This document shows, in pieces, positions 12,852-63,193 of a stretch of 64,000 nt of DNA. A program made the position numbers and the translations under genes. Source of the stretch: Acutalibacteraceae bacterium (lineage in GTDB: Bacteria > Bacillota > Clostridia > Oscillospirales > Acutalibacteraceae); NCBI GenBank assembly GCA_045654905.1, contig JAZOOH010000024.1, forward strand, positions 557-64,556. The letters are read 5' to 3'. How positions within the stretch are numbered: position 1 is the first letter of the stretch; each line of letters opens with the position of its first letter. The notes beneath the pieces were generated by a model. The model searched no databases and was not told the origin of the DNA. It saw only the letters and a program-made list of their open reading frames with translations.

Positions 12852-12895
12852 CGAAACCACCTCTTTAATACATTATATCACAGGCTCCAACGGTT

Positions 12896-13109
12896 TTCAA
12901 TGAAATCGCGCAAGCGCGATGATATCCTCACTCCATTCGGATGAAATCTGCTAACGCAGATGAAATCAAATCATTCCTTCACCTGACGAAGTAGGATTTC
13001 ATCACGGAGTGATTTCATCCACCGCAGGTGGATTTATCCCGTCCGCAAGGACGGATTTAGTTGAAAAGAAACACCTTTTGCCAGATAGGCAAAATGTGTT
13101 TCTTTTCTG
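12896..13109. repeat. Hairpin-array repeat R1 (214 bp) ending in a terminator hairpin
   Basis: Collinear with 13734-13947. It is a chain of short GC-rich palindromes joined by TGAAATC / GATTTCA linkers, then AGAAACAC..GTGTTTCT followed by TTTTC. Confidence 0.75.
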
Positions 13110-13206
13110 CGAAAGAGCAGTATAACGGTGCGTAAATGGGGTAAAGAAAAGCGATTCGCTGCGTAACCGTACTGTTCGACATATTGGAATTTGTCAACTT
13201 GTGAAA

Positions 13207-13668
13207 TCAAATGGAATCCAACGCTCCAATCTCGTACCATTCGTTTGAAAGCTTTTTGGATTTCATATTCATATAAGGACGAGCATCTTCCTTCTTTTGA
13301 TTAATAGCCTTTTTCGGATTCGAAGACCACAACACACCATAGTAACCCGTTTCGTCTTCCCAAAAGATGATGTAGTCATTGTCCATTTCAATGTATGTAA
13401 ATCCTTTATCGTGGATAGCTTTCACAGAATCTTCGATAGAACTGTCCGAAATGTCAGTTCCGTTTATTGATAAAAACTGACTGCCTATATCGACAATCAA
13501 CCGAGAACTGTCATTACGAGCAATGTTGTAGTCAGCAAGGAAGTTCTTCACCATAACAAAATCATCTTCATATTCCTGAAAGTCCTCAAAATCAGGTTTG
13601 CTCAATTGACAACCAACTATTCCAAAAGCACAAACAATTGCCAAAACGAAAGCCATTAACTTTTTCAT
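13207..13668 (-). CDS. Small lipoprotein, function unknown
   Basis: MKKLMAFVLAIVCAFGIVGC lipobox after an AAGGAGG RBS. The longer track ORF (to 13857) merely translates repeat R2. Confidence 0.7.
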   Translation of the reverse strand: MKKLMAFVLAIVCAFGIVGCQLSKPDFEDFQEYEDDFVMVKNFLADYNIARNDSSRLIVDIGSQFLSINGTDISDSSIEDSVKAIHDKGFTYIEMDNDYIIFWEDETGYYGVLWSSNPKKAINQKKEDARPYMNMKSKKLSNEWYEIGALDSI

Positions 13669-13733
13669 ACTGGTAACCTCCTTTGTCAAATTCTTATTTA
13701 TCGAAGTGATTATACCACATATTCCCAAACCCT

Positions 13734-13946
13734 TCAATGAAATCGCGCAAGGCGCGATGAAATCCGAGCGATGCTCGGATGAAATCTGCTGCGCAGATGA
13801 AATTAAATCCGTCCTTATCTCCTGACGAAGTCGGATTTCATCACGAAGTGATTTCATCCACCGTAGGTGGATTTATTCCGGACGAAAGGACGGATTTAGT
13901 TGAAAAGAAACACCATTTGTCAGGTAGACAAATGGTGTTTCTTTTC
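13734..13946. repeat. Hairpin-array repeat R2, abutting the 3' end of tRNA-Leu
   Basis: Same order of palindromes as R1. Most differences from R1 fall in hairpin loops. The terminal hairpin AGAAACACCATTTGTC..GACAAATGGTGTTTCT serves as the tRNA terminator. Confidence 0.75.
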
Positions 13947-14033
13947 TGGTGCCGGTGGTGGGACTCGAACCCACACGATGTCGCCATCAACGGATTTTGA
14001 GTCCGTCACGTCTGCCAATTCCATCACACCGGC
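13947..14033 (-). tRNA. tRNA-Leu (anticodon CAA)
   Basis: The reverse complement gives GCCGGTG acceptor, an ACGGA-CTCAAAA-TCCGT anticodon arm, a long variable arm, a GGTTCGAGTCC T-arm, CACCGGC-A and an encoded CCA. Confidence 0.9.
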
Positions 14034-59704: not shown

Positions 59705-60508
59705 ATGGAGTTTGCATATATTAGAAAGCTTAAGCCGTTCATAATTCTTGCAATGATATTTATTTTTATGCCTATTCTTACTAAATCAGGCGGAATAGTA
59801 CCCTCAGAGTTTTACGGCTTTACCGTTACAAGTGACGACGTTGTTATAGTTGGGGATAACAAAGAAATCAGCGGCTGGCAAAACTCAAGTAAGATATTCT
59901 CCTTTGATATGCCCTTAAAAACGGAATACGCGCTCTCAATCGACCAAAACGACAATATCGTTATTTACACTAAAAATGCGAGATTGATTTTCACGCAGGA
60001 GGGCAGTCTGCTCTCTGCTGCTGAAGCAGAGCCTTCAATTTTTGAAGACTTAAAAGACCGCAAAATAATAAAGCTTAGTGAAAGCAAGGTGTACGTGCAC
60101 ACAACCGATTACGGCTTTATAAACACAGTAAGCAAGATAGAAAACGGTACGAGCACCACTGCTTACACAACACCGAAAACCGTTATACTTGTTGAGTTTG
60201 CCTTTTGGCTTGGCAACCTTTTGCTTGTAATAAGCCTTATAGCAGGTCTTTTAGACGTAAGAAAAAGGCGCTTTTTAACAAAAACAGCAGAAGCTGCAAA
60301 AGAGTCCAAAAAAAATGTTGAGCTTCCAAAATTTTTAAAGGCTTTCCAAAAGCCCGAAACGTATAACAAGGGCGCAGCCTTTTCGGATGAGTACAGCACA
60401 AAGCCCGGCGAGCGTCCACGCTTCACAAAGGATGCTGAAGCTGAAGCTAATACCGACTCCCCCGCAACAAAAAAGCAGGAAGAAAAATCTGACACCGCGG
60501 AAATATAA
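59705..60508 (+). CDS. Membrane protein, function unknown
   Basis: N-terminal TM helix, a beta-rich domain, a second TM helix (VILVEFAFWLGNLLLVISLIAGLL) and a charged tail. No motif was recognised. Confidence 0.5.
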   Translation: MEFAYIRKLKPFIILAMIFIFMPILTKSGGIVPSEFYGFTVTSDDVVIVGDNKEISGWQNSSKIFSFDMPLKTEYALSIDQNDNIVIYTKNARLIFTQEGSLLSAAEAEPSIFEDLKDRKIIKLSESKVYVHTTDYGFINTVSKIENGTSTTAYTTPKTVILVEFAFWLGNLLLVISLIAGLLDVRKRRFLTKTAEAAKESKKNVELPKFLKAFQKPETYNKGAAFSDEYSTKPGERPRFTKDAEAEANTDSPATKKQEEKSDTAEI

Positions 60509-60582: not shown

Positions 60583-60611
60583 TTGACAACAGTAGCATTA
60601 TTCGTTATAAT
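60583..60611 (+). promoter_or_regulatory. Sigma-A type promoter of tRNA-Pro
   Basis: TTGACA (60583-60588), a 17-nt spacer, then TATAAT (60606-60611), 28 nt upstream of the tRNA. Confidence 0.55.
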
Positions 60612-60639: not shown

Positions 60640-60715
60640 CGGGGTGTAGCGCAGTTGGTAGCGCGTCTGGTTTGGGACCAGAATGTCGGGAGTTCGAGTC
60701 TCTTCACTCCGACCA
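60640..60715 (+). tRNA. tRNA-Pro (anticodon UGG)
   Basis: CGGGGTG acceptor, GCGC-AGTTGGTA-GCGC D-arm, TCTGG-TTTGGGA-CCAGA anticodon arm, GGGAG-TTCGAGT-CTCTT T-arm, CACTCCG-A and an encoded CCA. Confidence 0.9.
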
Positions 60716-60758
60716 AATACAAGGAATAACCTTTTGGTTGTTCCTTGTATTTTTTTGT
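60713..60758 (+). repeat. Left copy of a perfect 46-bp direct repeat (tRNA CCA end plus its terminator hairpin)
   Basis: CCAAATACAAGGAATAACCTTTTGGTTGTTCCTTGTATTTTTTTGT is identical to 62805-62850. It contains the tRNA terminator (ACAAGGAATAACC/GGTTGTTCCTTGT plus T-run). Confidence 0.85.
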
Positions 60759-60774
60759 GTTGAATTAACTTTAA

Positions 60775-60970
60775 TTCCCGATATTCTGTCACAACCAGGC
60801 GCCCGTCTGGTTTGGGCTATGAGCACGACCGCCGCCTGTGGCGGATGAAGGGAGTGCTTATAGGCGTAGGGGTCAAAATTGTGCGATGCGAATAGCGAGC
60901 TTACAATTTTGGGCACCGCAAGAGGCACGCAGTGAGAATATCGGGAGTTCGAGTCTCTTCACTCCGACCA
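60775..60970 (+). other. Module B: tRNA-Pro-derived structured segment
   Basis: 60804-60816 equals tRNA positions about 25-37 (CGTCTGGTTTGGG). 60935-60970 equals tRNA positions about 41-76 with one mismatch. 118 nt of unrelated hairpin-rich sequence lies between them. CCCGATATTCT (60777-60787) pairs with AGAATATCGGG (60935-60945). Its own terminator hairpin follows at 60972-61012. Confidence 0.5.
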
Positions 60971-61026
60971 TAAAAACAGTGATACCTTTAGGTATTGCTG
61001 TTTTTATTTTTGTATTGAAAAGTTTC

Positions 61027-61129
61027 GGGAAGAGACTCGAACGACCCTCGGCGAAGCCGAACACAATTGGGTTTTCGCGCAGCGAATCGTAGGGCGTAGC
61101 CCTGCGAGTCTCTTCACTCCGACCAAATA
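61027..61129 (+). other. Module C: cloverleaf-like segment ending in a 25-nt copy of the tRNA-Pro 3' end
   Basis: GAAGAGACTCG pairs with CGAGTCTCTTC and encloses three hairpins. The segment ends in CGAGTCTCTTCACTCCGACCAAATA and is followed by a terminator hairpin (61131-61167). Confidence 0.5.
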
Positions 61130-61222
61130 AGCACGATGGTTTTGATACGAAACCATCGTGCTTTTTCTTTTCCTAAAGAGCCTTGTAGCAAAAGGCTTTT
61201 CGATGCTTTGGTGCAGTAGACT

Positions 61223-61380
61223 AGTTTCACTGTATCAAAATTAACTGCACAAGAGTTGAAGTTGGAGGAATTGAACTTACACGTTTTTCAAGTACTTAAA
61301 ACCACAATGAAACTTTTATTTTGGATTAGTTTCATTGTGATTGAATAAGTTTCATCGTGTCATACAAAAGTTTCAGTGTG
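61223..61380 (+). repeat. Array of AGTTTCA-YYGTG motifs upstream of the MerR-like gene
   Basis: Direct copies start at 61223, 61328, 61348 and 61369 (the last three spaced 20-21 bp). One inverted TGAAAC lies at 61308. Confidence 0.7.
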
Positions 61381-61447
61381 GTGTTCAGCTTTTACAATGC
61401 GTTTCTTGATATATTCGCGAAAATATGCAATAATATGTAAAATAGTA

Positions 61448-61478
61448 TTGACTTTTACCTTGCGTAAAAAGTTATAAT
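61448..61478 (+). promoter_or_regulatory. MerR-type promoter: 19-bp spacer containing a dyad
   Basis: TTGACT (61448-61453), a 19-nt spacer, then TATAAT (61473-61478). The dyad ACTTTTAC-CTTGC-GTAAAAAGT fills the spacer. Confidence 0.55.
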
Positions 61479-61502
61479 CCTCTTATAAATGGAGGTGTTT
61501 AT

Positions 61503-62693
61503 ATGAAAATCAAAACTGCATGCGAGTTGACTGAGCTAACTGACCGCACAATTCGATATTACATTGAGGAGCAACTTATATCTCCTTCATACACAGAAAA
61601 CTACTTGGGAAGGAAATCATTCGATTTTTCCAAATCCGATATACAGCAATTGCAAGATATTGCTATTCTTCGCAAGTTTGGTTTTTCTATTGCCGAGATC
61701 AAAGAAATGCTTTCAGTACCTTCTCAAATCATCCCAATTGCAAAAGAATTACAACAAAGAAAACAGAACACCATTAATGAAGAAAACTCGCTTCTACAGG
61801 CATTGCTGAGGTTGGACGAAAACCAGTCCTACACCATCACCGAACTGGCAGCTCAATTATCTGCCCCCGTTGTGAATGAGCCTTTGCCTTCCGAAGATTA
61901 CACTAAAAATATTGTAAAAGTGATTTTGTATTTCTTCAAATCCTTATTGTTGGGTGTCGTCACATGGCTCCCTTTGGTTCTTTCGCTCCTTGCAGCAATC
62001 ATCAGTATCCATTCTGACGCATATCCGGTATTCAACCCAAAAGCATTCGTAGTTGTCCTCTTCGCACTCTCTCCCACTTTATTGATGGTTCTTTTACCTA
62101 AAGATAAGGTTAGGTTTCCATGGCTGCCCATTGCAAGAAAAGTCCTTATTGTCCTTTGCATCCTTAGCATTCCGATTAGTTTTATCTCTTCCAGTAGTAT
62201 CAGCTCACGCTCTGAAACATCGGACATTCGCAATTACCGTCGTTTTGATACTGATTGTCTTGCCAACAGGTCTTCCTTTTTTCAGGAACTGTTTCCAATT
62301 TGGCCGCACTATTTTACAAATGAGAAACAGCCAGATGGTAGTTGGGAGACCGTATATTTAGATGCCCATTATTACTACCGTAATCTTCCGGCAATGGATT
62401 ACACCTATGACATATATGCCGAATGGCCCTTAGAAAAGGACGAATTTGATAAAGAAGTTGCCCGTGTACAAGCATTGTACGAAAGTCAGTCAAGTGACTA
62501 TGTTACCGTGCAAAAGGGAGACTATACCTGTTTCTTTTTGTATGATGGCAACCCGCCCTTTGAAGAAGTAACGGACAGTTACACCTATTTCATTTTTGCC
62601 TTTGATGAACAAAATTTGATCGTCCGATATATAATATGTGATAGTCTTGAAAACGGTGTAGATCAGCCATATTATTTGTCGTTAGATTGGTGA
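61503..62693 (+). CDS. MerR-family HTH protein fused to a multi-TM region and a C-terminal domain of about 160 aa
   Basis: The N-terminus ACELTELTDRTIRYYIEEQLISP..FSKSDIQQLQDIAILRKFGFSIAEIKEML is a MerR HTH. Three hydrophobic helices follow at about aa 135-230. GGAGGTG RBS. Confidence 0.75.
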   Translation: MKIKTACELTELTDRTIRYYIEEQLISPSYTENYLGRKSFDFSKSDIQQLQDIAILRKFGFSIAEIKEMLSVPSQIIPIAKELQQRKQNTINEENSLLQALLRLDENQSYTITELAAQLSAPVVNEPLPSEDYTKNIVKVILYFFKSLLLGVVTWLPLVLSLLAAIISIHSDAYPVFNPKAFVVVLFALSPTLLMVLLPKDKVRFPWLPIARKVLIVLCILSIPISFISSSSISSRSETSDIRNYRRFDTDCLANRSSFFQELFPIWPHYFTNEKQPDGSWETVYLDAHYYYRNLPAMDYTYDIYAEWPLEKDEFDKEVARVQALYESQSSDYVTVQKGDYTCFFLYDGNPPFEEVTDSYTYFIFAFDEQNLIVRYIICDSLENGVDQPYYLSLDW

Positions 62694-62703
62694 TTTTTAG
62701 CAA

Positions 62704-62783
62704 GGTTTCATTTATGCGTGAAGGTTTCACTTTCTGGCGGATGGTTTCATTTCAAGTGAAACCTGTTGAAACCATATGAAACG
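62704..62783 (+). repeat. Array of GGTTTCA (three direct) and TGAAACC/G (three inverted) motifs downstream of the MerR-like gene
   Basis: Direct copies at 62704, 62723 and 62743 (19-20 bp spacing). Inverted copies at 62757, 62767 and 62777 (10 bp spacing). Confidence 0.7.
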
Positions 62784-62804
62784 TATCAATATTATAAGCC
62801 TTTG

Positions 62805-62850
62805 CCAAATACAAGGAATAACCTTTTGGTTGTTCCTTGTATTTTTTTGT
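62805..62850 (+). repeat. Right copy of the perfect 46-bp direct repeat
   Basis: Identical to 60713-60758 but not preceded by a tRNA body. Confidence 0.85.
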
Positions 62851-62861
62851 ACTAAAAAATT

Positions 62862-62951
62862 GGGAAAGAGACTCGAACGACTCTCGCCGAAGGCGAACAC
62901 AATCGAATTTATTCGTGGGGCACCGCCCCACGAGTCTCTTCACTCCGACCA
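62862..62951 (+). other. Module D: homolog of module C ending in a copy of the tRNA-Pro 3' end
   Basis: Collinear with module C. AGAGACTCG pairs with CGAGTCTCT, and the internal hairpins are conserved through compensatory changes. It ends in CGAGTCTCTTCACTCCGACCA and is followed by a terminator hairpin (62957-62992). Confidence 0.5.
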
Positions 62952-63193
62952 TAAACAAACGAAGCTATGATACAATTTCATAGCTTCGTTTCCTTTTCTT
63001 TTATTAGGTTGCAAAATACCTTTATATATGTTAATATTTCTATAGAATTGCAGAGGAAGAGGTGTAATAATTGTGGAGAACATCAAGCAAGCTTGTATTG
63101 ATCAGCTGTTGTACAAGTAGTCTTTTTTAACCGATTACATTTAATTGGTTACTCGCACTAGGCGGACATTACATTGGTGTAGTTGCAGATGTT

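Follow-up and report, generated by a model that had tools for sequence, protein, structure and literature searches.

Hairpin modules repeated behind a tRNA-Pro gene of gut Clostridia as candidate attachment sites of small integrase-less cassettes

Transfer RNA genes are classic landing pads for genomic islands, and the make-up of the element-side attachment site is known for few integrases only. Tandem islands at tRNA and transfer-messenger RNA (tmRNA) genes have been described as Islander-type islands, as the ssrA islands of Dehalococcoides with their 20-bp direct repeats from the T-loop, as cis-mobilisable elements (CIMEs) and as the tycheposons of Prochlorococcus (PMC4383910, PMC3146451, PMC5704250, bioRxiv 10.1101/2020.12.28.424599). 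In integrons and in clusters of attC sites lacking integron integrases (CALIN), short cassettes are arrayed with imperfect palindromic sites of ~60-140 nt in which structure is conserved rather than sequence (PMC4889954, PMC3053210). The locus described here lies in a 64,000-nt stretch of DNA from an Acutalibacteraceae bacterium (GenBank assembly GCA_045654905.1, contig JAZOOH010000024.1, positions 557 to 64,556 of the forward strand), referred to in full as the window. Downstream of an intact tRNA-Pro(UGG) gene, three structured modules, termed B, C and D, each end in a copy of the tRNA 3′ end. A model that had read the sequence alone (the original prediction) offered three identities for them: tRNA-mimicking small RNAs (sRNAs), recombination sites recognised as hairpins, or decayed or interrupted tRNA paralogs. 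Of these, recombination sites fit best. We put at about even the chance that the modules are attachment sites belonging to miniature cassettes that lack an integrase and have accumulated at a tRNA hot spot, with the modules possibly functioning as folded strands.

The repeat that defines the array is the last 21 nt of tRNA-Pro, from mid-T-loop to CCA (60695-60715), here called the core. Its 20-mer GAGTCTCTTCACTCCGACCA is found exactly at 60696, 60951, 61106 and 62932, always on the + strand, and had no match in 100 shuffles. Intrinsic-terminator-like hairpins follow directly 3′ of the four cores (60715-60752, 60970-61007, 61129-61163 and 62957-62991), and the terminator scan found nine such sites in the region where 2.6 were expected. 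They are named by what they follow: T_a (tRNA), T_b (B), T_f (C) and T_d (D). The tRNA-Pro gene, which has its own promoter at 60583-60611 (12/12 consensus match), is the primary attachment site. From there the array is a succession of units, each made of the core, a terminator, a linker, an inverted core copy ('anti-core') and a conserved hairpin body (in the C/D type, three hairpins, H1, H2 and H3), with a spacing of 146-155 bp for units of the C/D type and 255-257 bp for those of the B type.

Modules C and D (Table 1) are 78-82% identical, have only the last 21 nt in common with tRNA-Pro, and each fold into a closing stem plus three hairpins (fold z = -4.1 and -4.6). In C, the 5′ strand GAAGAGACTCGAAC has 14 nt of complementarity to tRNA-Pro itself, three more than are pairable within the module. 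Module B is collinear with tRNA positions ~22-37 and ~40-76 through two blocks (60801-60816, 15/16 identical; 60935-60970, 35/36 identical) with 118 nt between them. It is closed by a stem whose 5′ strand (60773-60787) pairs with 60935-60949 in the tRNA-derived part; the structured body is 60788-60934, and within it 60822-60925 forms a widespread conserved core, termed the B core. The original prediction had claimed the recurrence of the tRNA-Pro 3′ end in all modules, a terminator hairpin behind every copy, the homology of C and D with a stem enclosing three hairpins, and the collinearity of B around a 118-nt insert, all of which were borne out; the closing stem of B and the extended complementarity of C to the tRNA had escaped it.

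Table 1. Features of the tRNA-Pro array (window positions unless a related locus, L, is named)
Feature	Position	Strand	Basis or remark
tRNA-Pro(UGG), intact	60640-60715	+	ARAGORN; Rfam tRNA model, 65.6 bits
Terminator T_a	60716-60757	+	directly after CCA; terminator scan
Module B	60770-60970	+	repeat analysis and consensus fold
Terminator T_b	60971-61012	+	with the following linker begins the next unit
Module C (M type, long variant)	61026-61125	+	repeats, fold, alignment of copies
C, anti-core	61029-61042		
C, H1	61048-61060		GAA loop
C, joiner GAACACAAT	61059-61067		
C, H2	61074-61086		GCA loop
C, H3	61090-61104		GTA loop
C, core	61105-61125		
MerR cassette, separate, 1.68 kb	61126-62804	+	directly after CCA of C
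T_f	61126-61170	+	start of MerR cassette
GTTTCA-type short repeats	61220-61390 and 62700-62790		both cassette ends
MerR-HTH (helix-turn-helix) protein gene	61503-62693		Pfam MerR_1; membrane-like C-terminal half
Second CCA and T_a copy	62805-62850	+	repeat of 60713-60758, just upstream of D; missed by the original prediction
Module D (M type, short variant)	62862-62951	+	identical copy in L003
D, anti-core	62866-62878		
D, H1	62884-62896		
D, H2	62904-62915		
D, H3	62916-62930		
D, core	62931-62951		
Terminator T_d	62952-62995	+	then ~1 kb of small cargo open reading frames (ORFs) common to L006
Integrase island at tRNA-Pro	L007 4130-6829		
Integrase island at tRNA-Pro	L009 11000-14000		
Integrase island at tRNA-Pro	L021		
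Integrase island at tRNA-Pro	L022		

The fold of the modules is conserved beyond the window. Both compensatory differences that had been cited for the hairpins of C and D are real (TCGGC/GCCGA versus TCGCC/GGCGA, and GTAGGGC/GCCCTGC versus GTGGGGC/GCCCCAC). A comparison of 14 distinct C/D-type sequences, which differ at few sites, shows one double-compensatory pair per hairpin (H1 G-C/C-G, H2 U-A/C-G, H3 A-U/G-C) along with three to four disruptive singletons, while the anti-core and the unpaired joiners are invariant as the stems vary. Taken alone, the covariation is modest evidence for the fold, and relatedness of the copies inflates the shuffle statistics. B is the more telling case. The consensus fold of four sequences reaches -65.3 kcal/mol on the + strand versus -44.6 on the - strand, has G.U at seven positions and shows double changes at three to four; with a difference of 20 kcal/mol, this fold belongs to the + strand, which is the sense strand of the tRNA. 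Judged by the structure test used for integrons, hairpins covary, and specificity for the + strand is present in B and absent in C and D. GC skew, consulted for the lagging-strand template, is dominated by gene orientation. The hairpins of C and D have three-base loops, among which GNA loops closed by C-G account for all three of C (GAA, GCA and GTA) and for H1 of D; non-GNA loops are found in D H2 (TTTA or TT), in D H3 (ACC) and in metagenome variants (AGA). Triloops of this GNA kind, with C-G closure, typify DNA mini-hairpins of very high stability and are unusual in RNA. The conserved hairpins argue for a single-stranded functional form, and DNA is favoured over RNA by the low RNA signal described below, by the mobile context and by C's GNA triloops. 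The modules probably act as DNA, possibly folded.

Related loci document the tRNA-Pro site in several states. A genome-collection scan for an anti-core followed by a core returned six loci from metagenome-assembled genomes (MAGs) of Oscillospiraceae and Acutalibacteraceae, and 21 more were reached through homologs of a 267-amino-acid (aa) protein encoded upstream of the tRNA, giving 27 in total. In the window, the housekeeping genes deoC, ddl, DUF1934 and argS precede this conserved protein (59705-60508), which stands directly upstream of tRNA-Pro in all relatives; neither it nor any of its 66 homologs at E <= 1e-10 (0/66) has a Pfam hit. At one locus (L023) the site is empty, and the tRNA is followed by its own terminator and then hydF. 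At three others (L009, L021 and L022), tRNA-Pro is followed by two tandem tyrosine-integrase genes (459 and 384 aa) and a 66-aa HTH_17 gene, and at L007 by an integrase gene (475 aa) and a second integrase homolog that runs off the contig end. Other loci carry arrays of C/D-type or B-type units behind tRNA-Pro. The terminator T_e and its adjoining arm, which flank the integrase in L007, are found behind the last module in L001, L002 and L008, and this indicates that an island was already in place when the small units entered between it and the tRNA. Incomplete tRNA copies starting in the anticodon loop (L002, L003 and L006) constitute a second crossover position or class. The cargo genes that lie between repeats are defence or toxin-like: MerR, MerR/TipAS, Fic/SoFic, HipA, NERD, an HD/dGTPase-like protein, PDC-S01 (AAA_14/DUF4143) and a trypsin-like protease with DUF5677.

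Core and terminator behave consistently across these loci. In the window together with 24 of the loci (25 sequences), 54 core copies were counted, all without a mismatch, and 31 of the 54 lie outside a tRNA. A terminator stands directly behind the core in every window copy and in all but one copy of the related loci (the exception is in L003), as expected when an element restores the tRNA gene. T_b recurs in L003, L004, L005 and L010-L019. T_a is found in L005 behind the last core, adjoining host genes, and is probably the native or oldest terminator of the lineage.

Several side observations concern the larger elements at this site. The integrase islands of L009, L021 and L022 carry agr-like quorum-sensing genes and RHS toxins behind the recombinase genes. 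A repeated motif, ACGACCACATGTTAGTCCACAG, occurs near both junction types and may be an arm-type integrase site. In L024 (10950-12013), an element with DUF6809 and TnpV genes, as in Tn4451-type mobilisable transposons, sits at the same tRNA-Pro 3′ end with yet another terminator.

Units also come and go among strains. DNA metagenome contigs include strains without the MerR cassette, without single units, or with a fused B+C form. The unit made of T_b, linker, C and core is 96.8% identical between the window and L010, against a background of 61% identity at third codon positions of argS and 45% in the upstream spacer, which means that the unit either spread horizontally in recent times or is very strongly constrained. 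For B units the identity is 88-90%. Fusion of the B body straight to the hairpins of a C-type module is seen in L008 (11040-11303) and L010 (8140-8395), and what is lost in it is precisely the hairpin that core, terminator and anti-core make up; the inverted repeats appear unstable. In L028 (1-166, reverse strand), the B body is joined to a core via the 9-nt GGGCACCGC, which is common to B and the short H3. A displaced partial tRNA-Pro copy in L003 (4655-4697) has the T-stem GGTCG instead of GGGAG, giving GGTCGTTCGAGTCTCTT, the exact reverse complement of the C/D anti-core plus the next three bases; this variant hints at exchange between direct and inverted copies. A metagenome joint that goes back 255 bp could be a tandem copy or a circle.

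The MerR cassette is a separate insertion. A metagenome contig without it joins 61122 to 62805 exactly after CCA, with seven shared bases (CCAAATA), and the CCA and T_a copy behind the cassette is the original continuation of C's core before the cassette inserted. The cassette is a third kind of insertion or crossover at tRNA-derived sequence. A related T_g cassette encodes MerR/TipAS in L004 and has left a 200-bp remnant in L008. In gut metagenomes, the depth of T_f (61126-61167) exceeds that of its flanks 20-50 times, and there it follows the CCA of several other tRNAs (e.g., ...GGATCGATTCCCCTCGGCTCC|ACCA and ...GGTTCAAGTCCCCCCACCCGC|ACCA).

The modules belong to a wider family. Across eight runs of gut metagenomes, three stretches of the locus are 10-60 times deeper than their flanks: the B core (depth 100-450 vs 7-26), the H1 block of C (~61045-61083; 120-800 vs 4-18) and T_f. 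The B core has the conserved motifs GAURAAGGGAGUG and GCGGUC...GGGCACCGCAAGAGG and is also seen away from tRNA-Pro. The wider-family members of C, known only from 30-letter contig overhangs, place other anti-cores ahead of H1 (GGTGATTCGAAC, GGGACTCGAAC, GGGACTTGAAC, GGACTTGAAC, GGGGTCGAAC, GGCTCGAAC and GAGAAACTCGAAC), each the reverse complement of a plausible tRNA T-loop and T-stem 3′ strand, and other tRNA 3′ parts behind variants of H3 (CGAATCACCTCAC, CGACTCCCATCAG, CGAGCCTCTCCTTC, CGAATCCCTTGCT and CAAGTCT). H3 itself keeps its position and loop in these contigs as its stem changes (ATGGGC/GCCCAT, GCAAGGC/GCCTTGC and GAAAGGC/GCCTTTC); compensatory changes, few among the tRNA-Pro copies, are more numerous in these variants. 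The architecture of an inverted T-arm, a conserved hairpin body and a direct T-arm running to CCA is therefore general, with a possible strict co-variation of closing stem and target. A link of anti-core GGTGATTCG to core CGAATCACC through an identical H3 was withdrawn, given that this H3 goes with three different cores. Every copy retrieved as sequence is linked to tRNA-derived sequence, and metagenome contigs are in part tied to tRNA 3′ ends.

Database searches placed the modules in no described family. An Rfam cmscan, both at the gathering score and at E <= 10, returned the tRNA only, and BLAST against plasmid and phage collections gave the trivial tRNA-Pro match or chance hits. Scans of viral contigs with two module patterns, the H1 block, the B-body motif and an integrase relative returned nothing, chance coding hits or an unrelated high-GC contig (L020). 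One metagenome-collection scan with a stem-agnostic motif had zero matches, though Joint Genome Institute (JGI) contigs reached otherwise contain the motif; a second yielded a single truncated contig (L028), and the collection thus does not serve as a census. A protein database search with a spurious reading frame of the module gave one match, and exact-protein look-ups for two window proteins gave none.

Serial site-specific insertion at a tRNA hot spot is the simplest account of these observations and follows the logic known from tandem islands, cis-mobilisable elements and tycheposons. The unit would be a very small mobile cassette that has no integrase, measures ~146-155 bp (C/D type) or 255 bp (B type) and inserts by site-specific recombination inside the 21-nt core. 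An inserted unit would supply a new tRNA 3′ end and terminator, so that the tRNA stays intact, and the previous tRNA 3′ end would be pushed downstream, behind the unit's hairpin arm. Repeated events of this kind, together with larger islands and the second cassette kind that lands right after CCA, would build the stack, which homologous recombination and hairpin-driven deletions would then shuffle. Modules B, C and D would be the element-side arms of the attachment sites, with the hairpins and the anti-core/core stem most likely mattering at the DNA level. By folding, a single strand may restore the tRNA target as a duplex on which a recombinase provided in trans could act; taken by itself, the folding step is one that we consider doubtful. 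The locus has what is expected of an accretion array in its intact target tRNA followed by direct repeats of the tRNA 3′ segment that bound insertions, in the empty (L023) and occupied states of its relatives, and in metagenome contigs lacking the MerR cassette or single units; a recombinase gene beside one junction is what it lacks.

Several points weigh against this account. A phmmer search with four integrases found no recombinase gene anywhere in the 64 kb of the window, nor at <=10 kb from any array, and none is linked to the C/D-type units, which are non-autonomous, though the site qualifies, given the tyrosine integrases at the same tRNA in L007, L009, L021 and L022. A unit of 146-155 bp is very small for an excised circle, if such units do move on their own, and no circular or excised form was found in the contigs assembled from public runs. 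Hairpins and an inverted copy of the core are both dispensable for classical attP arms, which work as duplexes. The closing stem (P1) is invariant among tRNA-Pro copies, which leaves no covariation test there, and the folds of C and D are without strand asymmetry. Both ends of a module are visible in only two metagenome contigs, where the complementarity is 7/8 and 8/10, and the occurrence of one H3 with three different cores means that mosaics exist. Finally, no C/D-type unit has cargo between its terminator and hairpin arm, from which it also follows that the units are not simply gutted larger islands. The original prediction would have been refuted by ordinary attP/attB remnants of a known integrase family, and this describes the locus by half: the context is classical, and the module architecture is unusual with no integrase tied to it. 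Out of the ordinary are the size and regularity of the units, the missing cargo and recombinase, the multi-hairpin arm, the inverted core copy, the abundance and the use of several tRNAs.

An alternative possibility is that the modules function as structured RNAs, made by co-transcription with tRNA-Pro or by read-through from it, whose tRNA-like 3′ tail and own terminator would make them 3′-half mimics such as decoys, processing elements or regulatory elements. All modules share the orientation of the tRNA, and those of the window have an intrinsic terminator behind them, exactly like a tRNA gene. The conserved folds, the compensatory changes, the conserved unpaired joiners, and the strong + strand specificity of the B fold with its seven G.U positions would also suit an RNA, and RNA-run contigs covering B and the fused B+C form exist. 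We nevertheless regard this option, which includes the sRNAs of the original prediction, as unlikely. C and D have no promoter ahead of them, every module lies behind a strong terminator, and the sole promoter-like site of B would start transcription inside B's closing stem; that kind of stem would, moreover, sequester most of the tRNA-like tail. Even at E <= 10 Rfam has no match, and the GNA triloops of C and of D's H1 suit DNA mini-hairpins. In four metatranscriptomes, the tRNA reaches a depth of 90-165, the B core 4-17 and the H1 block 0-9, whereas in DNA runs of other gut samples the module blocks stand at 0.4-0.9 of tRNA depth; the metatranscriptome depths derive from unstranded contigs and are compatible with weak read-through. 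The modules are not abundant stable RNAs. Expression had also been read from a coarse RNA profile (module contigs present, neighbouring genes at 0), and this was rejected as DNA runs give the same profile, because the modules are multi-copy.

It is likewise improbable that the modules are passive scars, in which displaced tRNA ends and decayed arms of former islands persist without function, hairpins are kept up by template-switch ('quasi-palindrome') mutation and repeats are maintained by gene conversion. It is usual for tRNA hot spots to contain degraded remnants and partial tRNAs in tandem (PMC3146451; bioRxiv 10.1101/2020.12.28.424599), rearranged forms are many (the B+C fusion in L008 and L010, the L028 joint via 9 shared bases), and the 14 tRNA-Pro copies hold only three compensatory events against three to four disruptive ones. 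Scars, however, would not explain why 31/31 non-tRNA cores are perfect and the anti-core invariant, why joiners are invariant and stems variable, why H3 keeps its position with quite different stem sequences, why one unit is 97% identical across species at saturating neutral divergence, or why the conserved blocks occur in such abundance and in linkage with several tRNAs. Quite improbable, too, is a guide role for the anti-core, which would pair with the T-loop and T-stem of the tRNA in the manner of IS200/IS605 end guides or IS110 bridge RNA loops, such that a changed anti-core would retarget the cassette. The complementarity of the anti-core to 14 nt of the tRNA, more than in cis, the other T-arm-matching anti-cores beside the same conserved H1 block, and the closure of B in the same way with a different tRNA segment all point in this direction; the imperfect matching in both linked contigs and the low RNA levels do not, and no gene for an HUH transposase, IS110-type recombinase, TnpB or IscB was found near any array in the visible part of each genome. 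A TnpB/IscB-type guide RNA with a scaffold and a 21-nt 'guide' was rejected, as the nuclease gene that it calls for is absent and its guide would end up buried in the closing stem. The last option, in which B, C and D would be paralogs of tRNA-Pro that have decayed or been interrupted, with an intron-like anticodon-loop insert in B, draws on the collinearity of B with tRNA positions ~22-37 and 40-76 and is effectively refuted. ARAGORN and the Rfam tRNA model (RF00005) call only 60640-60715 in the region, B, C and D are all without a 5′ acceptor strand and D-arm, and C and D match the tRNA over the last 21 nt only. At 118 nt, the insert is far shorter than a group I intron, has no Rfam match and has a core that also occurs in non-tRNA contexts; the non-tRNA parts of the modules are widespread conserved families. 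Other candidates for the B body (tRNA intron, group II intron remnant, T-box, riboswitch classes, and fragments of RNase P, tmRNA, SRP and 5S RNA) did not match, and Rfam agrees.

A parallel of another kind is found elsewhere in the window. At 12890-14033 (- strand), a tRNA-Leu(CAA) gene is followed by two rounds of a terminator, an inverted pair of Gut-1 RNA motifs (RF01706) and a small gene. There are four copies of the motif (34-56 bits), and the terminator is duplicated right after the tRNA CCA. A second tRNA 3′ end is thus followed by an array of cassette-like make-up, and the Gut-1 motif that it contains may function as a site in DNA instead of as an sRNA.

The tRNA-Pro locus shows a site module that is regular in form, built of hairpins, includes its target as an inverted copy and recurs as gene-less units of 150 bp. 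The family exceeds single-copy DNA 10-60 times in cattle, pig and other gut metagenomes and is without a match in Rfam or in plasmid or phage collections. If the fold is the functional form, the modules would be a second example, after integron attC, of cassette traffic via folded single-stranded sites, in a phylum (Firmicutes) in which, to our knowledge, integrons are essentially unknown, and they would offer a handle on the shuffling of small defence and toxin genes among uncultured gut Firmicutes. Further still, gut Clostridia might harbour a widespread cassette system, integron-like but unrelated, that docks primarily at tRNA 3′ ends through a self-folding site whose anti-core/core stem spells the target tRNA; target choice would then lie in the pairing, not in the recombinase, and would be changeable via the stem. 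We consider this unlikely. If the modules are only scars, they are still useful markers for island boundaries in MAGs.

When set beside described systems, the modules resemble several and coincide with none. Like tRNA-like small RNAs (the bacterial Y-RNA-like YrlA and viral tRNA-like 3′ ends), they have a cloverleaf-like outline ending in tRNA 3′ sequence with CCA; unlike them, they are without acceptor stem or promoter, give a low RNA signal and have no Rfam match. With the ends and miniatures of IS200/IS605 insertion sequences and with arrays of repetitive extragenic palindromic (REP) sequences and bacterial interspersed mosaic elements (BIMEs), they share single-strand hairpins, guide-like target complementarity, mosaic arrays at gene 3′ ends and non-autonomous copies. 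They differ in that no HUH transposase or REP-associated tyrosine transposase (RAYT) is among the ORFs scanned here, that copies retrieved as sequence are tied to tRNA 3′ ends and not dispersed, and that the complementarity is 11-14 nt rather than 4 nt.

The integron attC sites and CALIN are alike in their paired inverted 'core' boxes at the base, their variable hairpin top, their arrays that may be without an integrase and their small toxin or defence cargo. The R''/R' consensus (RYYYAAC/GTTRRRY), however, is absent here, where CTCGAAC and GTTCGAG do not fit it, the boundary of tRNA identity is at the inner and not the outer end of the stem, most units are without an ORF, and the primary site is a tRNA 3′ end, not attI. 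The tandem tRNA islands agree with the array in the intact tRNA followed by serial exact copies of its 3′ end, with newer arrivals thought to push older ones outward, in integrase-less segments bounded by att repeats, in accessory and defence cargo, and in a conserved motif just upstream of each repeat. What sets the tRNA-Pro array apart from these islands is that no cognate recombinase was found, that its units are ~150 bp, gene-less and highly regular, and that the arm on the element side has a conserved four-way fold and contains the core in inverted copy.

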